DNA of 57,997 bases, counting the filler, from Nitrospirota bacterium (lineage in GTDB: Bacteria; JACPQY01), in the NCBI GenBank assembly GCA_016180645.1. It is 3 parts of 3 records of this genome, joined end to end, with 100 filler letters (N's around TTAATTAATTAA, not from the genome) between each part and the next. Parts side by side here need not be neighbours in the genome. Positions count along the whole stretch, not along the records: positions 1 to 21,966 come from JACPAV010000051.1; 2 more parts are not named here. One strand, given 5' to 3'. The notes under the pieces are model-generated. The model made no database searches. It had not been told where the DNA came from and saw only the letters and a program-made list of their open reading frames with translations. Each line of letters opens with the position of its first letter. Position 1 is the stretch's first letter. Position numbers and translations under genes: made by a program. This document shows, piece by piece, positions 10,967 to 36,096 of the stretch.

Positions 10967-12226
10967 ATGATGAAAATTGGAAGTGTTGGAATGGCGACCA
11001 TCATCGGGCTTGCGGCCCTCGGTTTCCAAGGCTCGGTTCGGGCTGGGGAGAGTGTTCTTCGGCTTGAAGATGTTTTGACAGAGGTTCGCGAGAACAGTCC
11101 CCGAATTCAAGCGGCGGCGAAGATGTCCGAAGCGGCGCGCGCGCGTGTTCCACAAGCCAAGGCCTTGGATGACCCGATCCTGTCCATCGAAAACCAACCT
11201 GGCGATGAGCAGATGGTTGGAGTGGAGCAAATGATTCCGTTCCCTTGGAAGCTCAAGGCGCGAGCGACGGTGGCAGAAGCTGAATCGGACTCGGTCGACC
11301 GGATGTCGGACCGCACCGTTTTGGAAATTCTCGTCGAAGCCAAGCATGCCTTTCATCACCTTTTCCACTGGCACAAGAAGGTCGAGATCAACTTGGAGAA
11401 TCAGGACATTCTCCAAAGATTTGTCCGCATTGCCGAGTCCCGCTATCTGATCGGCCGCGCCGGTCAGGAGGATGTGCTCAAGGCGCAGGTGGAGGCGGGA
11501 AAGCTCGCCAATGAACTGGTGATGCTGAATCGGATGAAGGGGGAGGAAGAAGCGAATCTGAGCCGCTTGATGAATCGATCGATGGTGGCGCCCCTGCCTC
11601 CGCCGGAGTCGTTGCACGTCATGGAGAACCACGGACTTCGCGAGGATGATCTGTACGCGCTTGCGGAGGAGAATCGGCAGGAGACCCGATCTCAGGTCTC
11701 GATGGTGCGCGCCGGGGAAGAGAAGGCGAGGCTGGCCCGACTCGACTACGCTCCGGATTTTCTGGTCGGCGCCGAATGGGGGCGCATGGAAGGCACGCTC
11801 GGGCCTGCCGGCAAACGATGGGGCGCGATGCTCGGCCTCAGCCTCCCCGTGTGGTTCACCCAAAAGCAGCGGTACGGAGTGAGGGAGGCCGACGCGATGC
11901 TCCAGTCGTCGCGGTCTGACCTTCAGGATGTTCGCAATCGTGTCCGGTTTGAGGTGAAGCAGGCCTATTTGAACGTCACCGCCTCGAATGCGCAGCTCGA
12001 CATTTTCAATTCGGGACTTCTGCCCCAGGCCGAGCAGGATCTGAGGATCACCACCTCCGCCTATGAGGCGGGAAAGATGGACTTTCTCCGTCTGCTGGAG
12101 TCGCAGCGCGCGCTCCGCGAGCTGAAGATCGCGTACTTCGACGCCCTCCTCGAATACAACATGAGCTTGGGCGACCTCGAACTGGCTGTCGGCAAGGAAC
12201 TTCCGATCCATACCGGAAGTCACTAA
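10967..12226 (+). CDS. TolC-family outer-membrane efflux protein (CusC-like)
   Basis: OEP repeats, EQMIPFPWKL and AYEAGKMDFL motifs; precedes the MFP and RND genes. Confidence 0.92.
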   Translation: MMKIGSVGMATIIGLAALGFQGSVRAGESVLRLEDVLTEVRENSPRIQAAAKMSEAARARVPQAKALDDPILSIENQPGDEQMVGVEQMIPFPWKLKARATVAEAESDSVDRMSDRTVLEILVEAKHAFHHLFHWHKKVEINLENQDILQRFVRIAESRYLIGRAGQEDVLKAQVEAGKLANELVMLNRMKGEEEANLSRLMNRSMVAPLPPPESLHVMENHGLREDDLYALAEENRQETRSQVSMVRAGEEKARLARLDYAPDFLVGAEWGRMEGTLGPAGKRWGAMLGLSLPVWFTQKQRYGVREADAMLQSSRSDLQDVRNRVRFEVKQAYLNVTASNAQLDIFNSGLLPQAEQDLRITTSAYEAGKMDFLRLLESQRALRELKIAYFDALLEYNMSLGDLELAVGKELPIHTGSH

Positions 12227-12362: not shown

Positions 12363-13439
12363 ATGAAACGAAGAACATCAATCTGCCTGTCGACTTGGGT
12401 TGCGGCGATGTTGGCGCTTTCTGCCTGCGAAGGAAAAGGAACATCCGCGCCGGAAGCGGCGCGTGAGCACGCAGTCCACGAGGAGCATGCCAGGAAGAAA
12501 ACCCTTTACCAGTGCCCCATGCACCCGTCGTACACCTCCGATAAGCCGGGCGAGTGCCCGATTTGTGGAATGACACTGGTGCCGGTAGAGGAGTCCGCCG
12601 CGGGCGAGGAGGCCCCGTCGGATGTGTCCGGACGCGTCACGATCAACATCTCGCCGGAGCGGCAGCAGATCATCGGCGTCAAGACCGATGTGGCGAAAAT
12701 TCAGCCGCTGACCAAGACGGTGAGGGCCGTGGGAAACATCGCTTATGATCCGGAGCTATACCAGGCGGAGAAGGAATACATCGAAAGCCTGAGCAGCCGG
12801 GACAAGACCGGAGGCTCTCCCGGCACGGTCGGACTCGTGGATTCTTCCTCGATTCGCCTGCGGCAGCTCGGTTTGAACGACGCGATGATTGCGGATCTCG
12901 CCCGTTCAAGAAAACCCTCTCTGAACTTGCTGCTCCCGGAGGACACGATGTGGGTTTACGCGCAGGTCTACGAATACGAGATCAATTGGATCAAGGTCGG
13001 TCAGTCGGTTTCGACGACATCACTCGCGCTTCCGGGCGAGATGTTCCGCGGCACGCTCCGGGCCATCGATCCCGTCGTGAATCCGGAGACTCGAACGGTG
13101 CGCATCCGGGCCGAGGTCAAGAACCCCGGCCGGAAACTCAAACCGAACACCTTCGTGAACGTGGAGATCGAGACCGCGCTGGGGAAGGGGCTGACGATCC
13201 CCCGTGATGCCGTCATCGACACCGGAGACCGGAAAATCGTATTTGTCGACCTCGGCGGGGGCAAGTTGCAACCGCGGGAGATCCGTACGGGTATTGAGCT
13301 TGCAGACGACGTGCAGGTATTGGAGGGGTTGGCGAAAGGCGACAAAGTGGTCACCTCCGCCAATTTCCTGATTGATTCGGAGTCCTCCCTCAAGGCTGCG
13401 GTCAAGCAGATGAGTGGCCATGCAGGTCACGGTCAATAG
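12363..13439 (+). CDS. cusB: Efflux RND periplasmic adaptor (CusB-like) with heavy-metal-binding domain
   Basis: Lipobox LSAC, YQCPMHP...CPICGM, FLIDSES. Confidence 0.9.
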   Translation: MKRRTSICLSTWVAAMLALSACEGKGTSAPEAAREHAVHEEHARKKTLYQCPMHPSYTSDKPGECPICGMTLVPVEESAAGEEAPSDVSGRVTINISPERQQIIGVKTDVAKIQPLTKTVRAVGNIAYDPELYQAEKEYIESLSSRDKTGGSPGTVGLVDSSSIRLRQLGLNDAMIADLARSRKPSLNLLLPEDTMWVYAQVYEYEINWIKVGQSVSTTSLALPGEMFRGTLRAIDPVVNPETRTVRIRAEVKNPGRKLKPNTFVNVEIETALGKGLTIPRDAVIDTGDRKIVFVDLGGGKLQPREIRTGIELADDVQVLEGLAKGDKVVTSANFLIDSESSLKAAVKQMSGHAGHGQ

Positions 13440-13453
13440 CGAGCAATACGACC

Positions 13454-16400
13454 ATGATCGAAAAGCTGATCGAAGCCTGCGCCAAGAACCGATTCATGAC
13501 GCTCCTCGTCATCCTGAGCATCGCCCTGTTTGGAGTGTGGAGCGTCAAGCACATCCCGCTGGACGCGATTCCGGATCTGTCGGATACGCAGGTCATCGTC
13601 TACTCCCGATGGGACCGCAGCCCGGACATCATGGAGGACCAGGTGACCTATCCCATCATCTCGGCGATGTTGGGCGCGCCGAAGGTGAAGGCCATCCGGG
13701 GTTTCTCTGATTTCGGCTACTCCTACGTGTACATGATTTTCGAGGACGGGACCGATATCTATTGGGCGCGCAGCCGAACGTTGGAGTATTTGAGCAAGGT
13801 TACGCCCCTGCTGCCTGAAGGCGTGAGGACGGAGCTGGGTCCCGATGCCACCGGCGTCGGCTGGGTTTTTCAGTACGCGCTGGTGGATACCTCCGGCAAG
13901 CAGAGCCTTGCCGATCTCCGGAGCTTTCAGGACTGGACGCTCCGCTACTACCTCCAGGGCGTGCCGGGCGTGGCGGAAGTGGCGCCGATCGGCGGATTTG
14001 TGCGCCAGTACCAGGTGAACCTCGATCCCAACGCGCTCCTCTCGTACAAGATCCCCATCGAGAAGGTGATGGAGGCCATCCGCAACGGCAACAACGACGT
14101 GGGCGGGCGGCTCCTCGAATTCAGCGGAAGGGAATACATGGTGAGGGGCAGAGGCTACGCCCGGAGCACGGCGGATATCGAGAAGATTGTCGTGGGCGTC
14201 AGCCCCCAATCCGGGACGCCGATTCTCGTGAAGAATCTTGGGAGCGTGGTGCTGGGGCCGGATATCCGGCGCGGCCTGGCCGATTTGAACGGCGAGGGGG
14301 ACGTCGTGGGCGGAATCGTGATCATGCGCCACGGCGAGAACGCGCTCAAAGTCATCGACCGGGTCAAGAAGAAGCTCAAGGACATCGAGCCTACGCTTCC
14401 GGAGGGCGTCAAGCTGGTGACGACGTATGACCGCTCGGACCTCATCCTCCGCAGCATCGAAACGCTCAAAGATACGCTGGTGGAAGAAATGGTCGTCGTC
14501 AGCCTGGTCATTCTTGTCTTCCTCTGGCACATCCCTTCGGCCATCATCCCGATCTTCACGTTGCCCATCGCGGTGCTCTTCGCGTTTATTCCGATGTATT
14601 TCATGGGCCTCTCCAGCAACATCATGTCCCTCGGCGGCATTGCGGTGGCCATCGGGGCCCTCGTCGACGCCGCGGTGGTCGTGGTGGAGAACGCCCATAA
14701 GAAGCTGGAACGATGGATGCGGGAGGGAAGGCAGGGAGACTACCGAACCGTCCTCATCGGCGCCATCCAGGAGGTCGGGCGTCCCTCCTTTTATTCCCTC
14801 ATGGTCATCGCCGTGGCGTTCATCCCCGTTTTTACGTTGGAGGCGCAGGAGGGAAGACTTTTCAGACCGCTGGCGTTCACGAAGAACTTCTCCATGTTCT
14901 TCGCCGCCATTCTTGCGATCACCCTCGATCCCGCCATCCGGCTCCTGTTCATGCGCTTCGAGCCCTTCATCTTCCGGCCGAAATGGCTCGCCAAGGTGGT
15001 GAACGCGGCCGTGGTGGGTGAGCTGCACGAGGAGGACAAGCATCCCATCAGTCGTGTCCTGTTTCGTTTCTACCAGCCGGCCGCCGAACTCATGCTCCGC
15101 CGGCCCAAGACGGTTGTGCTCGTGGCCGTGGCCATCGTCATTGCCACGGTTCCGTTCTATTTCAAGCTTGGTTCGGAGTTCATGCCACCCTTGTATGAAG
15201 GGACGCTTCTCTACATGCCCACGACGCCGCCCGGGATCTCGGTGACCGAGTCCGGGAATCTACTGAACATCCAGGACCGGATCATCAAGAGCTTCCCCGA
15301 GGTGGATAGCGTTTTCGGGAAGGCGGGAAGAGCGGAGACTTCCACGGACCCCGCGCCGTTTTCGATGATGGAAACGACGGTCGTCCTCAAGCCGGAGGCC
15401 GAATGGAGGAAGGTGGACCGGTGGTACTCTTGGATGCCGGAGGTTTTCAAGAAGCCCCTGAGGCACGCCTGGAGGGAGGCCATCACGCCCGCCCAGCTTG
15501 TGGACGAAATGGACCAGGCGTTGAAAATCCCGGGAAGCGTCAACGCCTGGACGATGCCCATCAAGGCCCGCATCGACATGCTCACCACGGGCGTACGCAC
15601 ACCCGTCGGGATCAAGATTTTCGGGGCGGACCTCAAGGAGATCGAACGAATCGGGGAGCACATCGAGATGGTCTTGAAGCCGGTGAAGGGCACGCGAAGC
15701 ATTTTCGCCGAGAGGACTGCCGGAGGGTATTTCGTCGATTTCGATTTGAAACGCGAGGAACTGGCCCGCTACGGGCTCTCCGTCGCCGATGCGGAAATGG
15801 TCATCATGTCGGCGATCGGAGGGGAGAATGTTTCGCAGACCGTGGAGGGCAGGGAGCGGTATCCCATCAACGTGCGGTACGCCCGAGAGCTTCGGAACGA
15901 CATGGAACGGCTCAAGAGAGTTCTCGTCCCCACGGAGAGCGGGGCCCAGGTGCCGATTTCACAACTCGCGGACATCCGGATGGTCACGGGTCCCTCGATG
16001 ATCCGGGACGAAAACGGTAGACTCGCCGGCTACGTCTACGTGGACGTGGCGGGCCGGGACATCGGCAGCTACGTGGCCGACGCGAAGAAGGCCGTAAGGG
16101 AACAGGTGCAGATGCCCGCGGGATATGCCCTCACGTGGAGCGGTCAGTACGAGTCCATGGAGCGGGTGAAGGAGAGACTCAAGCTCGTCCTGCCCATCAC
16201 CGTGTTCATCATTTTCTTCCTCTTGTACATGAACACCAAATCGCTGACCAAAACCTTCATCGTCTTTCTGGCCGTGCCCTTTTCCGCCGTGGGAGCCATC
16301 TGGTTTCTCTATGCACTGGGCTATCAATCCTCGATTGCGGTGTGGGTGGGGCTGATCGCGCTGATGGGCTTGGACGCGGAGACGGGAATTTTCATGCTCT

Positions 16401-16714
16401 TATACCTCGATCTGGCCTATGACGAATGGAAGGCCAAGGGCAAGCTCAAGACCAAGGAAGATTTGCGGGAGGCGATTCTCTACGGCGCGGTGAAACGCGT
16501 GAGACCCAAAGTCATGACCGTCGCCTGCGCCGCGATCGGCCTTCTGCCCATCATGTGGTCGACCGGGGCGGGCGCCGACGTGATGAAGCGCATCGCCGCG
16601 CCGATGATCGGCGGGCTGTTCACGTCCTTCATCATGGAGCTGCTGGTCTATCCCGTGATCTACGAACTGTGGCGCGGGAGGGAACTGAAGAAAGTCATGA
16701 GTCGTGCGACATGA
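13454..16714 (+). CDS. cusA: CusA/CzcA heavy-metal efflux RND permease
   Basis: DAIPDLSDTQV, LGPDATGVGW, GSEFMPPL, FSMMET and RVRPKVMT motifs (Met-type Cu/Ag exporter). Confidence 0.95.
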   Translation: MIEKLIEACAKNRFMTLLVILSIALFGVWSVKHIPLDAIPDLSDTQVIVYSRWDRSPDIMEDQVTYPIISAMLGAPKVKAIRGFSDFGYSYVYMIFEDGTDIYWARSRTLEYLSKVTPLLPEGVRTELGPDATGVGWVFQYALVDTSGKQSLADLRSFQDWTLRYYLQGVPGVAEVAPIGGFVRQYQVNLDPNALLSYKIPIEKVMEAIRNGNNDVGGRLLEFSGREYMVRGRGYARSTADIEKIVVGVSPQSGTPILVKNLGSVVLGPDIRRGLADLNGEGDVVGGIVIMRHGENALKVIDRVKKKLKDIEPTLPEGVKLVTTYDRSDLILRSIETLKDTLVEEMVVVSLVILVFLWHIPSAIIPIFTLPIAVLFAFIPMYFMGLSSNIMSLGGIAVAIGALVDAAVVVVENAHKKLERWMREGRQGDYRTVLIGAIQEVGRPSFYSLMVIAVAFIPVFTLEAQEGRLFRPLAFTKNFSMFFAAILAITLDPAIRLLFMRFEPFIFRPKWLAKVVNAAVVGELHEEDKHPISRVLFRFYQPAAELMLRRPKTVVLVAVAIVIATVPFYFKLGSEFMPPLYEGTLLYMPTTPPGISVTESGNLLNIQDRIIKSFPEVDSVFGKAGRAETSTDPAPFSMMETTVVLKPEAEWRKVDRWYSWMPEVFKKPLRHAWREAITPAQLVDEMDQALKIPGSVNAWTMPIKARIDMLTTGVRTPVGIKIFGADLKEIERIGEHIEMVLKPVKGTRSIFAERTAGGYFVDFDLKREELARYGLSVADAEMVIMSAIGGENVSQTVEGRERYPINVRYARELRNDMERLKRVLVPTESGAQVPISQLADIRMVTGPSMIRDENGRLAGYVYVDVAGRDIGSYVADAKKAVREQVQMPAGYALTWSGQYESMERVKERLKLVLPITVFIIFFLLYMNTKSLTKTFIVFLAVPFSAVGAIWFLYALGYQSSIAVWVGLIALMGLDAETGIFMLLYLDLAYDEWKAKGKLKTKEDLREAILYGAVKRVRPKVMTVACAAIGLLPIMWSTGAGADVMKRIAAPMIGGLFTSFIMELLVYPVIYELWRGRELKKVMSRAT

Positions 16715-16753: not shown

Positions 16754-17170
16754 ATGAAACGAATAATCTCAATGGCATGGGCGGCATTTTTCATGTCGGC
16801 AGGGTTGGCCCTGGCCGGCGAGAAAGTGACGCTGCAAGGCGAGGTGCTGGATTCAGCCTGCTACATCGCCCACGGCGAAAAAGGCAAGGCGCACGAAAAG
16901 TGCGCCAAGATGTGCCTGAGAAAAGGCGCTCCAGCCGCGCTGCTGACGGACGATCAGAAGGTAATCCTCCTGATAACCAAGCACGGCGGGGAAGCGTTGT
17001 ACGAGGAGTTGAGGAAACTCGGAGGGGAGCGCATCGAAGCCGTCGGCGAGAAGTTCGACAAGGGCGGAATGGTGGCACTCGAATTGGAGTCCATCAAATC
17101 GCTCCAATCCGCCTCCCCGGCGAAGGAGAAGCATGAAGAAAGCGGCCACGGTGGTGGCCACATGCACTGA
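16754..17170 (+). CDS. Periplasmic Cys/His-rich protein
   Basis: Signal peptide, GEVLDSACY...HEKCAKMC, His-rich tail. Confidence 0.75.
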   Translation: MKRIISMAWAAFFMSAGLALAGEKVTLQGEVLDSACYIAHGEKGKAHEKCAKMCLRKGAPAALLTDDQKVILLITKHGGEALYEELRKLGGERIEAVGEKFDKGGMVALELESIKSLQSASPAKEKHEESGHGGGHMH

Positions 17171-17264
17171 TCCACCGTGGAGATGACCCATCCTTGGTAG
17201 GCGCAGGCTTTATGCCTGCGGTTGTCCGCTTCAAGAGGATCAGATTGTGTCTGGAGGTGTCAGC

Positions 17265-18128
17265 ATGAACGAAATCGTGGAGAAAGATCCCGTGTGCGGG
17301 ATGGATGTGAAGGCCGGGCACGAGGCGGCCCGGTTTGATCACCTCGGCAAGACGTACCTATTCTGCAATTCCGGCTGCCGGGACACATTCGCCAAGAACC
17401 CCGATGCCCACGTAAAGCGCGAAGGGGTGATGGGCAATGGACGTGGCGCGAAACCGCACCAGCACTACCGCGTGCTGCCTCCGATGAAGCACGATTTCTT
17501 TACACCGATCTATGACTTGGGCTGCCGACTCATGGGGCTGGGAACGCGATTCCGGGACTCCATCATTGGTTTCCTGGAACTGCGCGGTGGAGAGTCCGTT
17601 CTGGATGCGGGTTGCGGCACGGGCGTCTTGGCCGTGCGGATCAAGGAAAGAGTTCCCCTGGCAAACATGACCGGACTGGACCCGACCTCCTCCGCGCTTC
17701 GAATCGCTCGAAGGCGGGCGGAGAAGCGGAAGGTTGCCGTCGAGTGGAAGGAAGGGTTCGCGGAGTCCATGCCGTTCGCGGAGGCGACGTTCGACCGCGT
17801 GGTCACGTCGCTCGCTTTCCATCACATCCCCGCCGACAAGAAGATTCCGGCCCTCCGCGAGTGTCTTCGCGTCCTGAAGCCGGGAGGCCGACTCCTGCTG
17901 GTGGACTTTTGCGAGTTGGATACGTTCGGCGCGCGGTTCTTTCTCAAGACCGTGGTCGGCTTGGAGCACTTCGGTGATCAAATCGGCCGGCTGGACGACT
18001 TTCCGCGCGAGGCGGGTTTCAGCCATATTCGGCGCGTCCATCGCGCCCACCTGGGGATTGGGTTCTACATCGGTGAGAAAGGCGCGAGCCAAGAATCGAG
18101 AGGAGGAGAAAATGAGCAAAGGGTTTAG
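17265..18128 (+). CDS. YHS domain fused to class I SAM methyltransferase
   Basis: DPVCGM...YLFCNSGC (YHS) followed by VLDAGCGTG and LAFHH. Confidence 0.85.
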   Translation: MNEIVEKDPVCGMDVKAGHEAARFDHLGKTYLFCNSGCRDTFAKNPDAHVKREGVMGNGRGAKPHQHYRVLPPMKHDFFTPIYDLGCRLMGLGTRFRDSIIGFLELRGGESVLDAGCGTGVLAVRIKERVPLANMTGLDPTSSALRIARRRAEKRKVAVEWKEGFAESMPFAEATFDRVVTSLAFHHIPADKKIPALRECLRVLKPGGRLLLVDFCELDTFGARFFLKTVVGLEHFGDQIGRLDDFPREAGFSHIRRVHRAHLGIGFYIGEKGASQESRGGENEQRV

Positions 18129-18606
18129 GCTGCTCATCGCGTTCGGTATTTTTCTGGGTGCGTGCTCTTTTGGCGCGCTCACTCCGGAGAAAGTCTCGAA
18201 GCGCCTCAAGCACGGCTCGCTTGTGGCGGATCGGAGTCGGGTCTGCATGTTGCAGGATACGTACCAGGCCCAGAGCGTCCTCCCAATACCGTACAACGGG
18301 AAGACGTACTACGGCTGATGCGCGGGCTGCGTTGCCCGGTTCGGGCAAGATCCTGAGAAATTCTCGAAATCAACCGACCCCATCTCAGGGGCAAATGTGG
18401 ACAAGGCCCTCGCCTTCGCCTACCAGCGCGACGGAAGGGTTTTCTATTTCGAAACACTCGAAAACATCCTGGGGTTTGACCGTGATCCAAACGCACTCGG
18501 GCGTGTGCCGGTCACCCAGGCAATTCCGACCCCCAGGATGGGGGAAGTGCCGTCGGAAGGCAGGAGCCTGGAACGGCCAATGAATATGCAAGGAGGAACG
18601 CCATGA
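18112..18606 (+). CDS. YHS/TRASH-like exported protein, candidate selenoprotein (Sec69, UCxxC)
   Basis: SD AGGAGG and ATG 18112; VCM...GKTYYG-TGA(18316)-CAGC...DPISGANVDKA...YFE. Joins track ORFs 17974..18318 and 18397..18606 in one frame; ATGA overlap with the next gene. Confidence 0.8.
18332..18348 (+). promoter_or_regulatory. Putative bacterial SECIS hairpin
   Basis: TTGCCCG-GTT-CGGGCAA; loop G is 21 nt after the TGA. Confidence 0.7.
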
Positions 18607-18992
18607 ATAACAAGAAACTTCCCACCTCACCCCTCACCCCTCTCGCCTCTCGATGCAGAGGTATTATCGAACCCATTTCAGCCATTGCCGTGGCAGGGAT
18701 GGTCGTCATGATGGGCGGCATGATGGCTTTCATGGTGTGGGGCATGCCCAAGATGATGGGCATGATGCACGGCGGGCATGATGAAAAATCGCATGAGGAA
18801 GCGACGGAACATGGCGCCCACGCCACAAAGGCCGTCGATCCGGTGTGTGGCATGGAAATGAAGATCGCGGAGGACACGCCGAGAACCACCCACGAAGGCA
18901 AGACCTACTACTTCTGCTCAGGGGAAGACCTCAAGAAGTTCCTCGACGAGCCGGAGAAGTACGCGAAGCCCGGCGATCACGAGCGCAAGTAG
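18603..18992 (+). CDS. Membrane-anchored Met/His-rich YHS-domain protein
   Basis: Met-rich TM segment, His-rich linker, DPVCGM...KTYYFCS. Confidence 0.8.
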   Translation: MNNKKLPTSPLTPLASRCRGIIEPISAIAVAGMVVMMGGMMAFMVWGMPKMMGMMHGGHDEKSHEEATEHGAHATKAVDPVCGMEMKIAEDTPRTTHEGKTYYFCSGEDLKKFLDEPEKYAKPGDHERK

Positions 18993-19532: not shown

Positions 19533-20699
19533 ATGACGAAGGATGCCTTGCCCCCCGGAGTCCCCGCCATCGACCGCCTTCCGGACCTCTCGATGTGGCT
19601 CGACAAGAAATCGCATTTCCTCTTCGGCCCCCGGCAAACAGGCAAGACGTTCCTCATCCGAAGGGCTCTGCCGAAGGCAAGGATATACGATCTCTTGGAC
19701 AGCTCCGTCTACCTGGCGTTGAGTCAACGCCCCTCCAGACTCGGCGAAGAAATCGCCGGGGACGACCGGCTCGTGGTGATCGACGAAATTCAGCGTCTTC
19801 CCGTTCTCCTCAACGAAGTTCATCGGTTGATCGAGGAGCGGCGGATTCGTTTCCTCCTGACGGGGTCCAGCGCGCGGAAACTGCGTCGAGGCGGAGTCAA
19901 CCTCCTGGGAGGCCGGGCGCGCGTGCGGTACCTCCACCCCCTGACCTACCGCGAACTGGGATCGCATTTCGATCTGGGGCGGGCCGTATCGAGGGGGCTG
20001 CTGCCGTCGGTCTATTTCTCGGACGACCCGGCGGCGGATCTGGAGGCGTACACGGGCGCCTACCTCCAGCAGGAGATTCTCGCGGAAGGCGCCACGCGGA
20101 ACGTGCCCGCCTTCAGCCGATTCCTGCGCGTTGCGGCCCTCTGCAACGCCACGGTGATCAACTTCACCAACGTAGCCAACGATGCCCAGGTGCCGCGCAC
20201 CACCGTGTATGAATACTTCGAGATCCTGAAGGATACGTTGATCCTTCATGACGTACCGGCTTGGAAATCCTCGCGGAAGCGCAAGCCCCTCGTTTCCTCA
20301 AAGTACTATTTCTTTGATGTCGGAGTGGCGTCCTCGCTCCAAGGCCGTTTGCCGAGGCCGCGAACGCCCGAATTCGGCGCGGCGTTTGAGAGTTGGCTTG
20401 CCCACGAACTGCTGGCTTATCGGGACTACATGTCCGGAGAAGCGGTACGCCATTGGCGATCGGCCTCGGGCTTTGAAGTGGACTTTATTTTGGGAGACCA
20501 TACGGCCATCGAAGCCAAGGCCAAAGAGAACGTTTCCCCCGGCGATCTGCGGTCCCTTCGCGCGATCGCCGATGAGAAAACGATGAAACGCCTCATCTGT
20601 GTGACTCTGGAGCCTCGGCGTCGAAGGATCGACGGCATTACCCTCCTGCCCTATCGCGAGTTTCTGATCGGACTATGGAACGGTGAATTCACCTCATAG
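19533..20699 (+). CDS. AAA_14 ATPase with DUF4143 domain
   Basis: GPRQTGKT, IDEIQ, LTGSSARKL, KYYFFDVGV and EVDF...IEAK motifs. Confidence 0.9.
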   Translation: MTKDALPPGVPAIDRLPDLSMWLDKKSHFLFGPRQTGKTFLIRRALPKARIYDLLDSSVYLALSQRPSRLGEEIAGDDRLVVIDEIQRLPVLLNEVHRLIEERRIRFLLTGSSARKLRRGGVNLLGGRARVRYLHPLTYRELGSHFDLGRAVSRGLLPSVYFSDDPAADLEAYTGAYLQQEILAEGATRNVPAFSRFLRVAALCNATVINFTNVANDAQVPRTTVYEYFEILKDTLILHDVPAWKSSRKRKPLVSSKYYFFDVGVASSLQGRLPRPRTPEFGAAFESWLAHELLAYRDYMSGEAVRHWRSASGFEVDFILGDHTAIEAKAKENVSPGDLRSLRAIADEKTMKRLICVTLEPRRRRIDGITLLPYREFLIGLWNGEFTS

Positions 20700-20739
20700 C
20701 AGTTGGCGAGGAACGCAGGCTGCGGATGAAACCGGCGGC

Positions 20740-21375
20740 ATGGGAGTCGTCGCGCGCACGTACGGGTTCTGGGGACGCCATCCGGCTATCTACCGATTGC
20801 TTTCCGCCCCCACGTTTCTTTTTCGCGAACGACTGCTCCGGGGTCTCGCCGTGCAAGGGTTGGGGCTACGTCCTGGGAACGTGGCGCTTGAGGTTGCCTG
20901 CGGGACGGGGCTCAATTTGGCGCGGCTCAGGGAAGCGGTCGGCGAGGCCGGCCGGGTGGTGGGCTTCGATTATTCCGCCGAGATGCTGTCCGCGGCGAAA
21001 TCCCTCGCTCGGACGGAAGGATGGCGGAACGTCGAGTTTTTCCAGGGAGACGCGGCCGAGCTTTCGATCCCCGGCGGGATGTTCGACGGCGTCCTTTGCA
21101 TCCTCGGACTGAGCGCCATTCCGAGACGGCGAGCGGCCCTTGACCGCATCCACGCGCTCCTTCGCCCCGGGGGCCGCCTCTCGGCCTGCGACGCACAAGC
21201 CTTCCAGGGGGCGTGGAGATTCTTGAACCCCGTCATCCGTCCCCTCTACAGGAAGACGACGGCGTGGGATCCGGACGCGGACATTCCTTCAGAGATCCGT
21301 TCCATTTTCGGGAACCTGGAAATCGGGTACTTCAACGGCGGATCGTACTTTGTGGCCGTAGCGGAGAAGCGGTGA
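20740..21375 (+). CDS. Class I SAM-dependent methyltransferase
   Basis: LEVACGTG, GFDYSAEML and LRPGG motifs. Confidence 0.85.
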   Translation: MGVVARTYGFWGRHPAIYRLLSAPTFLFRERLLRGLAVQGLGLRPGNVALEVACGTGLNLARLREAVGEAGRVVGFDYSAEMLSAAKSLARTEGWRNVEFFQGDAAELSIPGGMFDGVLCILGLSAIPRRRAALDRIHALLRPGGRLSACDAQAFQGAWRFLNPVIRPLYRKTTAWDPDADIPSEIRSIFGNLEIGYFNGGSYFVAVAEKR

Positions 21376-21900: not shown

Positions 21901-21966
21901 ATGCGTAGGGGAGGGTCTTCAGACCCTCCCGACAAGAGGGAGCATCTGAAGATGCTCCCCTACGAA
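21901..21966. repeat. Palindromic repeat core (same family as 46551-46700 and 54450-54550), truncated by contig end
   Basis: GTAGGGGAGGGTCTTCAGACCCTCCCGACAAGAGGGAGCATCTGAAGATGCTCCCCTACGAA. Confidence 0.85.
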
Positions 21967-22066
21967 NNNNNNNNNNNNNNNNNNNNNNNNNNNNNNNNNN
22001 NNNNNNNNNNTTAATTAATTAANNNNNNNNNNNNNNNNNNNNNNNNNNNNNNNNNNNNNNNNNNNN
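21967..22066. other. Artificial contig linker
   Basis: N-run, TTAATTAATTAA, N-run. Confidence 0.98.
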
Positions 22067-35996: not shown

Positions 35997-36096
35997 NNNN
36001 NNNNNNNNNNNNNNNNNNNNNNNNNNNNNNNNNNNNNNNNTTAATTAATTAANNNNNNNNNNNNNNNNNNNNNNNNNNNNNNNNNNNNNNNNNNNN
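35997..36096. other. Artificial contig linker
   Basis: N-run, TTAATTAATTAA, N-run. Confidence 0.98.

Follow-up and report, generated by a model that had tools for sequence, protein, structure and literature searches.

We analyzed a window of 57,997 nucleotides, filler included, from the genome of a Nitrospirota bacterium (JACPQY01; NCBI GenBank assembly GCA_016180645.1), and found that a gene at positions 18112 to 18606 very probably encodes a selenoprotein, in which the in-frame UGA at codon 69 is read as selenocysteine (Sec). The family of this protein is large and unnamed and comprises exported YHS-type proteins with the motif CCxxC, the first Cys of which is replaced by Sec here. Codon 69 is assigned to Sec because several observations agree, namely the Sec machinery of the genome, a hairpin like that of the selD gene, the Cys column of the family, the nearest relative, the joint occurrence of hairpin and TGA, and a second TGA form at the same column. 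The wider statement, that the UGA is recoded, the product exported and Sec69 used as a metal ligand, is given a probability of about 0.7. Runs of N at 21967-22066 and 35997-36096 divide the window into three contigs; the gene lies on the first (1-21966), and genes beyond position 21966 need not adjoin it.

The original prediction had drawn attention to an in-frame TGA in the context KTYYG-TGA-CAGC and to a frame that continues for 95 codons beyond it. Translation from the ATG at 18112-18114, a start codon read from the sequence, bears this out: the residues around the TGA at 18316-18318 are NGKTYYG-TGA-CAGC, and 95 open codons follow until the terminal stop, a second TGA at 18604-18606, which overlaps the ATG at 18603 of the downstream gene (ATGA). 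In public databases the gene is present only as two pieces of 68 and 69 amino acids (aa), but the stretch from 18112 to 18606 is one gene, not two. The second YHS-like half that had been noted (DPISG..VDKA..YFE) is present and its key residues are conserved; all 121 sequences of an alignment share D89, V96, D97, K98 and F113, and nearly all share P90. The protein starts with a hydrophobic leader, as do its relatives, several of which have a Cys after the leader.

A profile search of 1.84 billion representative sequences returned 1225 relatives at E ≤0.001 and 147 at 1e-30. Among the best 150 representatives, 149 read Cys-Cys-x-x-Cys and one reads Ala-Cys-x-x-Cys, in agreement with the earlier statement that related proteins read KTYYGCCxxC. 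The exception, representative P0104, reads G-A-C-P-M-C, with Ala where the others have the first Cys of the pair, and the position turned to Sec here is therefore not strictly indispensable. At the level of codons, column 69 is TGC in 54, TGT in 16 and TGA in 2 of 72 distinct family genes. Alignments of 7 and of 121 sequences show no variation at Cys45, Cys70 and Cys73 and almost none at column 69. The members share a layout of hydrophobic leader, V-C-M, about 23 residues, YYG-C/U-C-x-x-C and then DPVSG-x-x-VDKA...YFE. Cys-form members, which are 25-49% identical to the window protein in the larger alignment, have the same architecture along the whole length, but unlike the window gene they have Cys at column 69 and no hairpin. 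For a natural Cys-form relative, the protein-atlas clusters bear only the names "hypothetical protein" and "MlpB protein", and nothing relevant to the name MlpB was found among the literature matches listed.

Family-profile searches of genomes (1345 whole-genome searches, with some genomes covered twice) detected the family in 32 genomes, two of which have TGA at column 69. The pairs of Cys and TGA forms at this column that a selenoprotein family should display were obtained in this way, with Cys in the relatives and TGA in a genome of another phylum (G229). A contig scan of genomes with the window protein gave only two distant YHS matches, one in the N-terminal repeats of a P-type ATPase region and one in a Chloroflexi gene, both with F-C at the column. 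When short proteins were searched, the window protein matched only its own two pieces, and the family alignment, applied to proteins of 30-50 aa only, had no match. A scan of metagenome contigs, for which the pattern demanded Cys codons, yielded 248 relatives, 80 of which were kept, and is uninformative on the frequency of the Sec form. The pattern YYG-TGA-C-x-x-C matched viral contigs 37 times, in every case out of frame by chance and never in a family member, and genome G427 was rejected as a further TGA form, its single TGA being the terminal stop. Three other matches, in G575, G699 and G1048, are flagged for a TAA or TAG.

A perfect 7-bp hairpin with a G-initiated loop, predicted to lie 21 nt past the TGA, is indeed present. 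Its arms (18332-18338 and 18342-18348) enclose the loop GTT (18339-18341), the G of which is the 21st base after the TGA. In the genome as a whole, a perfect hairpin of at least 7 bp at 8-25 nt downstream, with a G within the first two loop bases, follows 0.58% of 135,481 TGA triplets, and this background falls to 0.085% when the spacing is restricted to 11-15 nt and the loop to 3-5 nt. The selD gene of this genome (G000:C25:71715), which itself encodes a selenoprotein and reads C-A-G-TGA-A-G-K, served as an in-genome reference; that SelD is itself a selenoprotein is a known arrangement. The hairpin after its TGA has a 13-nt spacer, 7 bp and a 3-nt loop (GGA), and thus the same geometry as the one after codon 69. 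Within the family, a hairpin of at least 7 bp with a loop G at 8-30 nt downstream occurs in none of 70 Cys-form genes and in both TGA forms, and a 6-bp hairpin is found at the same place in 2 of the 70. The hairpin after codon 69 is more than chance. In the bSECISearch of Zhang and Gladyshev, the bacterial selenocysteine insertion sequence (SECIS) is said to have its loop about 16-37 nt after the UGA and a G at the start of the apical loop, and the hairpin described here, with a loop that begins 21 nt after the UGA, agrees with that description. A search of 18250-18700 against Rfam gave no match.

The genome holds the machinery needed for Sec insertion. selA (556 bits), selB (369.8 bits) and selD (356.9 bits) score over their cut-offs, and a tRNA-Sec with the anticodon TCA was detected at 73.3 bits, so that the sel genes, whose absence would have argued against a selenoprotein, are all in place. 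The genome is 97% complete under the standard code. Sequencing data gave no sign of TGC or TGT at codon 69: Logan contigs of four runs, all from one groundwater study, cover 18316-18318 and have no other letter there. Two of these runs, with depths of 40.5 and 3.2, are not marked as a possible source of the assembly. In run X3 we also observed a low-depth variant contig (3.46 compared with about 41) with 7 differences over 18330-18431, and none of the five that are listed lies within the hairpin. The habitat thus also holds a related strain.

The nearest relative is an ortholog in G001 (84% complete), which apart from the window genome is the sole member of this phylum in the collection. It reads KTYHQ-C-CAGC and is 53% identical over residues 13-143, with 38/61 identical residues after the TGA (residues 70-130) compared with 15/33 before it (residues 36-68). 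The coding frame is therefore conserved on both sides of the UGA, as is expected of a selenoprotein gene. In G001 neither selA nor selB was detected over the cut-off. Because this closest relative reads Cys, the Sec form would have arisen from the Cys form.

The second TGA form disposes of the concern that no homolog might have TGA at this column. It was found in G229, a genome from a different phylum that is represented by two genomes (87% complete, 7% contamination), and reads RTYYG-TGA-CDDC. Its frame past the TGA contains DPVSG..VDKA..YYFE and runs to the usual end of the family, and an 8-bp hairpin with the loop GGTC follows 22 nt after the TGA. selA and selB lie next to each other in G229, both over their cut-offs. 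In a quick family tree the window protein is grouped with the G001 Cys form at a support of 100, and the G229 form is placed elsewhere on a long, poorly supported branch, and this arrangement suggests two independent switches from Cys to Sec. With the machinery, the Cys/Sec column, the conserved frame, the hairpin, the second TGA form and the four runs all pointing the same way, the selenoprotein reading is strongly supported.

The Pfam model YHS (PF04945) matches residues 60-85 with 43.5 bits (cut-off 30.3), covering profile positions 19-44 of 47. No NCBIfam model matched the window protein, the G229 form or a Cys-form relative, and a sequence search of PDB chains with the family profile gave no match at E ≤1. 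An AlphaFold model computed with 121 sequences has predicted local distance difference test (pLDDT) values above 90 for residues 30-130; the tail encoded by the 3' end is disordered (pLDDT 57-70), and the last residue of the model is an artefact of reading the terminal TGA through. Weak structure matches were obtained to the C-termini of monooxygenase hydroxylases, eL24, NosL and an FCS zinc finger; they are not proof, and would fit a ribbon of the YHS/TRASH type. The ligands of YHS/TRASH domains, described by Ettema et al. in 2003, are reportedly an early Cys and a C-x3-C pair, with the spacing C-x19-22-C-x3-C in TRASH. Here the spacing is Cys45-x23-Sec69-x3-Cys73, in which the C-x3-C part fits and the first spacer is one residue over that reported range. 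Sec69 and Cys73 would form the C-x3-C pair of the domain, and Cys70 would be extra. Because Sec replaces the first Cys of this pair, in a protein with a predicted signal peptide and lipobox and beside a heavy-metal pump, it is reasonable to regard Sec69 as a putative soft-metal ligand. YHS domains have been proposed as copper-binding modules in the accessible part of an earlier paper (PMC4626032).

Selenoproteins with a YHS domain have been reported before. "YHS domain protein" selenoproteins of Olavius symbionts were described in 2007 by Zhang and Gladyshev, according to the accessible part of that paper (PMC1976440), and a YHS selenoprotein family with the motif GxU is catalogued as NF041384 (PMC13188914, PMC9312934, both accessible in part). 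This family resembles the one studied here in that its members are small, carry a Pfam signature of the YHS type, occur with either Sec or Cys, and were predicted from Cys/Sec pairs and a downstream hairpin. Membership was rejected, however: the window protein did not match the NF041384 model even at E up to 10, with at least 70 bits required, and in the whole genome the model found only two weak YHS stretches elsewhere (16 bits). Two translated members of NF041384 read GYDPVAYF...Y-x-FAS...YGGYCAY and have no Cys cluster, and their Sec or Cys lies in GGY-C/U-AY downstream of the YHS part. That motif is absent from the window protein, in which Sec lies within the Cys cluster of the domain itself. 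The comparison with curated selenoprotein models that had been proposed thus led to a known YHS family to which the window protein does not belong.

Sec in metal-binding motifs is an already described theme. A role as metal ligand has been proposed for the Sec of cation ATPases with UxxC, of MerP/MerT, of UxxU metal-binding proteins and of CopZ-family proteins in the accessible text of PMC13188914. As far as the available parts of three papers go (PMC9312934, PMC2398784, PMC13188914), selenoproteins of metal resistance likewise have Sec for Cys in a soft-metal or cluster-binding motif, but they belong to other folds and families, and none is a YHS/TRASH protein with C...U-C-x-x-C (the CDD entry cd10141 lies outside this comparison). 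In the partly accessible literature the relevant papers on YHS selenoproteins all concern the NF041384 type, and we found nothing in print on the present family or on Sec in a TRASH-type site; the supplements of these papers might list further families. The available text of a 2026 review contains none of the terms UCxxC, UxxxC, CUxxC and PF04945. Judged by its sequence, the window protein is a well-supported candidate for an uncatalogued selenoprotein family, as the rare Sec form of a large uncharacterised family.

CusF is the periplasmic Cu(I)/Ag(I) chaperone of the CusCFBA system of E. coli and uses Met, His and Trp as ligands. As a small exported metal-binding protein encoded together with a heavy-metal efflux (HME) pump of the resistance-nodulation-division (RND) type, it has the role that we propose here. 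The two proteins are unrelated in sequence (Pfam finds only YHS in the window protein) and differ in their ligands, which in CusF are neither Cys nor Sec.

We propose that SelB and tRNA-Sec recode UGA 69, in all likelihood under the guidance of the hairpin 13 nt downstream, and that the product is made in the cytoplasm and exported by means of its signal peptide, probably as a lipoprotein. It would fold into a YHS/TRASH-type domain followed by the Cys-free second half, and would thereby present the cluster Cys45...Sec69-Cys70-x-x-Cys73. The selenolate of Sec69, in place of a thiolate, would then bind a soft metal ion, a step that we favour by a small margin over its opposite. Cu(I) or Ag(I) is the most likely ion because of the Met/His-rich and YHS neighbours of the gene and of the copper genes beside its relatives. 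The low pKa and the softness of the selenolate could allow tighter binding or faster exchange outside the cytoplasm, and the protein may act as a periplasmic accessory, either a buffer or a chaperone, of the adjacent CusA/CzcA-type pump. A more speculative extension, which we consider rather doubtful, is that the exported CCxxC YHS family as a whole consists of extracytoplasmic soft-metal chaperones, and that Sec replaced their first ligand Cys independently in two or more deep lineages that are unrelated.

It is also conceivable that Sec is real but not a static ligand. Sec69 and Cys70, together with Cys73, could form a redox centre via a selenenylsulfide, which would reduce or oxidise a metal(loid) or the thiols of a partner in the periplasm. 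Redox proteins with UxxC or CxxU motifs make up the majority of bacterial selenoproteins, according to the accessible parts of two surveys (PMC2398784, PMC13188914), the motif found here has both U-x3-C and C-x-x-C, and the S-adenosylmethionine (SAM)-dependent methyltransferases near the gene in the window genome and in G001 could point to a transformation of metal(loid)s. However, the domain is of the YHS/TRASH type and not thioredoxin-like, its four cluster residues are conserved as a set, as would be the case for a metal site, and no conserved oxidoreductase partner is encoded beside the family. A redox centre is the strongest competitor of the metal-ligand role and in our view an unlikely one.

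The evidence for recoding also has to be set against the possibility that the TGA is a recent nonsense mutation of a Cys codon, the gene a fresh pseudogene and the hairpin a coincidence. The Cys form is by far the commoner one, and a single base change turns TGC or TGT into TGA, so that such a mutation would give the same codon picture; to that extent this point weakens the case for Sec. The hairpin is nevertheless expected at only 0.085-0.58% of TGAs, is absent from the 70 Cys forms and matches the selD geometry, and a second lineage combines TGA at the same column with a hairpin, selA and selB. Moreover, the TGA is fixed in contigs of four samples, and the frame stays open for 95 codons after the TGA, where conservation is also higher than before it. 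We therefore consider a nonsense mutation quite improbable. Even less probable is a true stop at codon 69, in which case the locus would encode an exported peptide of 68 residues and possibly another product, of 69 residues, starting at the GTG at 18397. Gene callers gave exactly these two pieces, but the shorter one keeps only one of the four conserved Cys positions, the piece from 18397 has no signal peptide and lacks residues 70-95, which are conserved in relatives, and all relatives examined except the two TGA forms are one continuous protein. Reading of the TGA as a standard amino acid, through an alternative code or general read-through, is the least probable of these readings, as the window gene and its relatives end in TGA and the genome is near complete under the standard code and has a dedicated tRNA-Sec and SelB.

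Several further points weigh against the proposed reading. The support for recoding is drawn from sequence evidence, and that for the metal-ligand role from knowledge of the family and from the gene neighbourhood. TGA forms are confined to 2 of the 32 genomes with the family. All four runs that keep the TGA come from one study, and two of them may be the source of the assembly. The minimum free energy of the 60 nt after the TGA is ordinary (z = -1.06; 29 of 200 shuffles were as stable). The G229 gene lies on a 5.8-kb contig of a fragmented genome with the above-mentioned contamination, and the selA and selB of this genome might conceivably come from a different organism. A Foldseek search with the predicted model gave no match at E ≤0.001, the best VIA match having a Z of 4.4. 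Finally, the G001 ortholog has no RND pump beside it, and the G229 form adjoins a permease of the MacB/FtsX type instead of an RND pump; proximity to a CusCBA-type pump is thus not a conserved feature.

Features of the window in and around the candidate selenoprotein gene
Feature	Position	Strand	Basis
Outer-membrane factor	10967-12226	+	Pfam OEP
Adaptor with HMBD	12363-13439	+	Pfam HlyD_D23 and HMBD
CusA/CzcA-family RND pump	13454-16714	+	Pfam ACR_tran; TIGR00914, 1100 bits (cut-off 701)
Small exported Cys/His-rich protein with His-rich C-terminal tail	16754-17170	+	Translation; no Pfam or NCBIfam match
YHS domain (residues 13-55) fused to SAM-dependent methyltransferase	17247-18128	+	Pfam YHS and Methyltransf_25
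Ribosome-binding site, GGAGG-type, 5-12 nt before the ATG at 18112	18100-18107	+	Read from sequence
Gene for exported YHS-type protein, 164 residues, putative Sec at codon 69	18112-18606	+	Translation with TGA read through
Predicted signal peptide with lipobox-like end L-G-A-C (Cys18)	18112-18165	+	Translation; leaders of relatives
Cys45 (V-C-M), first invariant Cys of the cluster	18244-18246	+	Invariant in 7/7 and 121/121 rows
TGA codon 69, probably read as Sec; U-C-A-G-C with Cys70 and Cys73	18316-18318	+	Cys column in relatives
SECIS-like hairpin, 13-nt spacer, perfect 7-bp stem, loop GTT	18332-18348	+	Sequence; same geometry as selD hairpin
Second, Cys-free YHS-like half, DP-x-SG..VDKA..YFE	18376-18483	+	Alignment; pLDDT of the model
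Copy of dispersed structured repeat, about 52 nt, in poorly conserved 3' tail	18527-18578		Copies in the genome
Membrane-anchored Met/His-rich protein with C-terminal YHS domain (residues 78-122)	18603-18992	+	Pfam YHS; translation

The original prediction placed the gene inside a Cu/Ag efflux operon. This is right in part: heavy-metal RND genes with a CusA/CzcA-family pump do lie upstream, a specificity for Cu or Ag is putative, and the adaptor scores 106.5 bits against the CusB model, below the cut-off of 390. From the pump to the Sec gene the genes are separated by 40 nt and 77 nt, and the last 17 nt of the YHS-methyltransferase gene are then shared with the start of the Sec gene. The spacing from the pump to the YHS genes fits one operon. 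In the Met/His-rich protein encoded downstream, the YHS domain lacks the last Cys of the C-x3-C pair. Another methyltransferase is encoded at 20683-21375 of the window.

In the neighbourhood of the G001 ortholog (L156, 8467-9892) we found genes for a YHS protein, two methyltransferases and a protein with an HMA domain. The recurring pairing of YHS proteins with methyltransferases hints at a possible methylation of metal(loid)s. In G229 the Sec form lies directly downstream of the permease gene, which encodes an ABC permease (L133, G229:C238, 2099-3238, minus strand).

The neighbourhood of Cys-form relatives was surveyed at 19 non-redundant metagenome loci, taken from the 80 found with the Cys-demanding pattern, by comparing the flanking open reading frames with Pfam. 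Neighbours with a role in metal resistance or efflux were present at 6 of the 19 loci, and an iron permease at a seventh. These six loci comprise a P-type ATPase with a YHS protein, multicopper oxidases (CopA/CopB) twice, MerR with a permease, and outer-membrane factors twice.

The repeat in the 3' tail of the gene is situated just before the ribosome-binding site of the downstream gene and recurs across 11 contigs of the genome, where at least 12 copies reach 38 nt or more and one directly follows a tRNA-Cys gene. The repeat forms two hairpins, with a compensatory change in one copy, and by its sequence looks like an element of the REP type. Extra contig pieces were seen at 18527-18578 in all four runs, and a weak protein match on contig C33 is due to this dispersed repeat.

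Because Sec in metal-binding motifs has been described already and Sec forms are as rare as stated above, the gain from this finding is incremental. Automated annotation cuts short selenoproteins for which there is no curated model, and the present case argues for such a model to stop the splitting of these genes. With Sec in a YHS/TRASH metal site, the protein would show, as a natural experiment, how selenium affects soft-metal binding outside the cytoplasm, and it would be the first functional entry point to a large family of uncharacterised proteins. With the YHS-methyltransferase fusions, the locus could even be a metal(loid)-transforming module rather than one of simple efflux. If the proposed function as a chaperone is true, the protein would be the first selenium-based periplasmic protein that binds Cu(I)/Ag(I) (or Hg/As) and works with an efflux pump, and metal resistance in this bacterium would be tied to its selenium supply.

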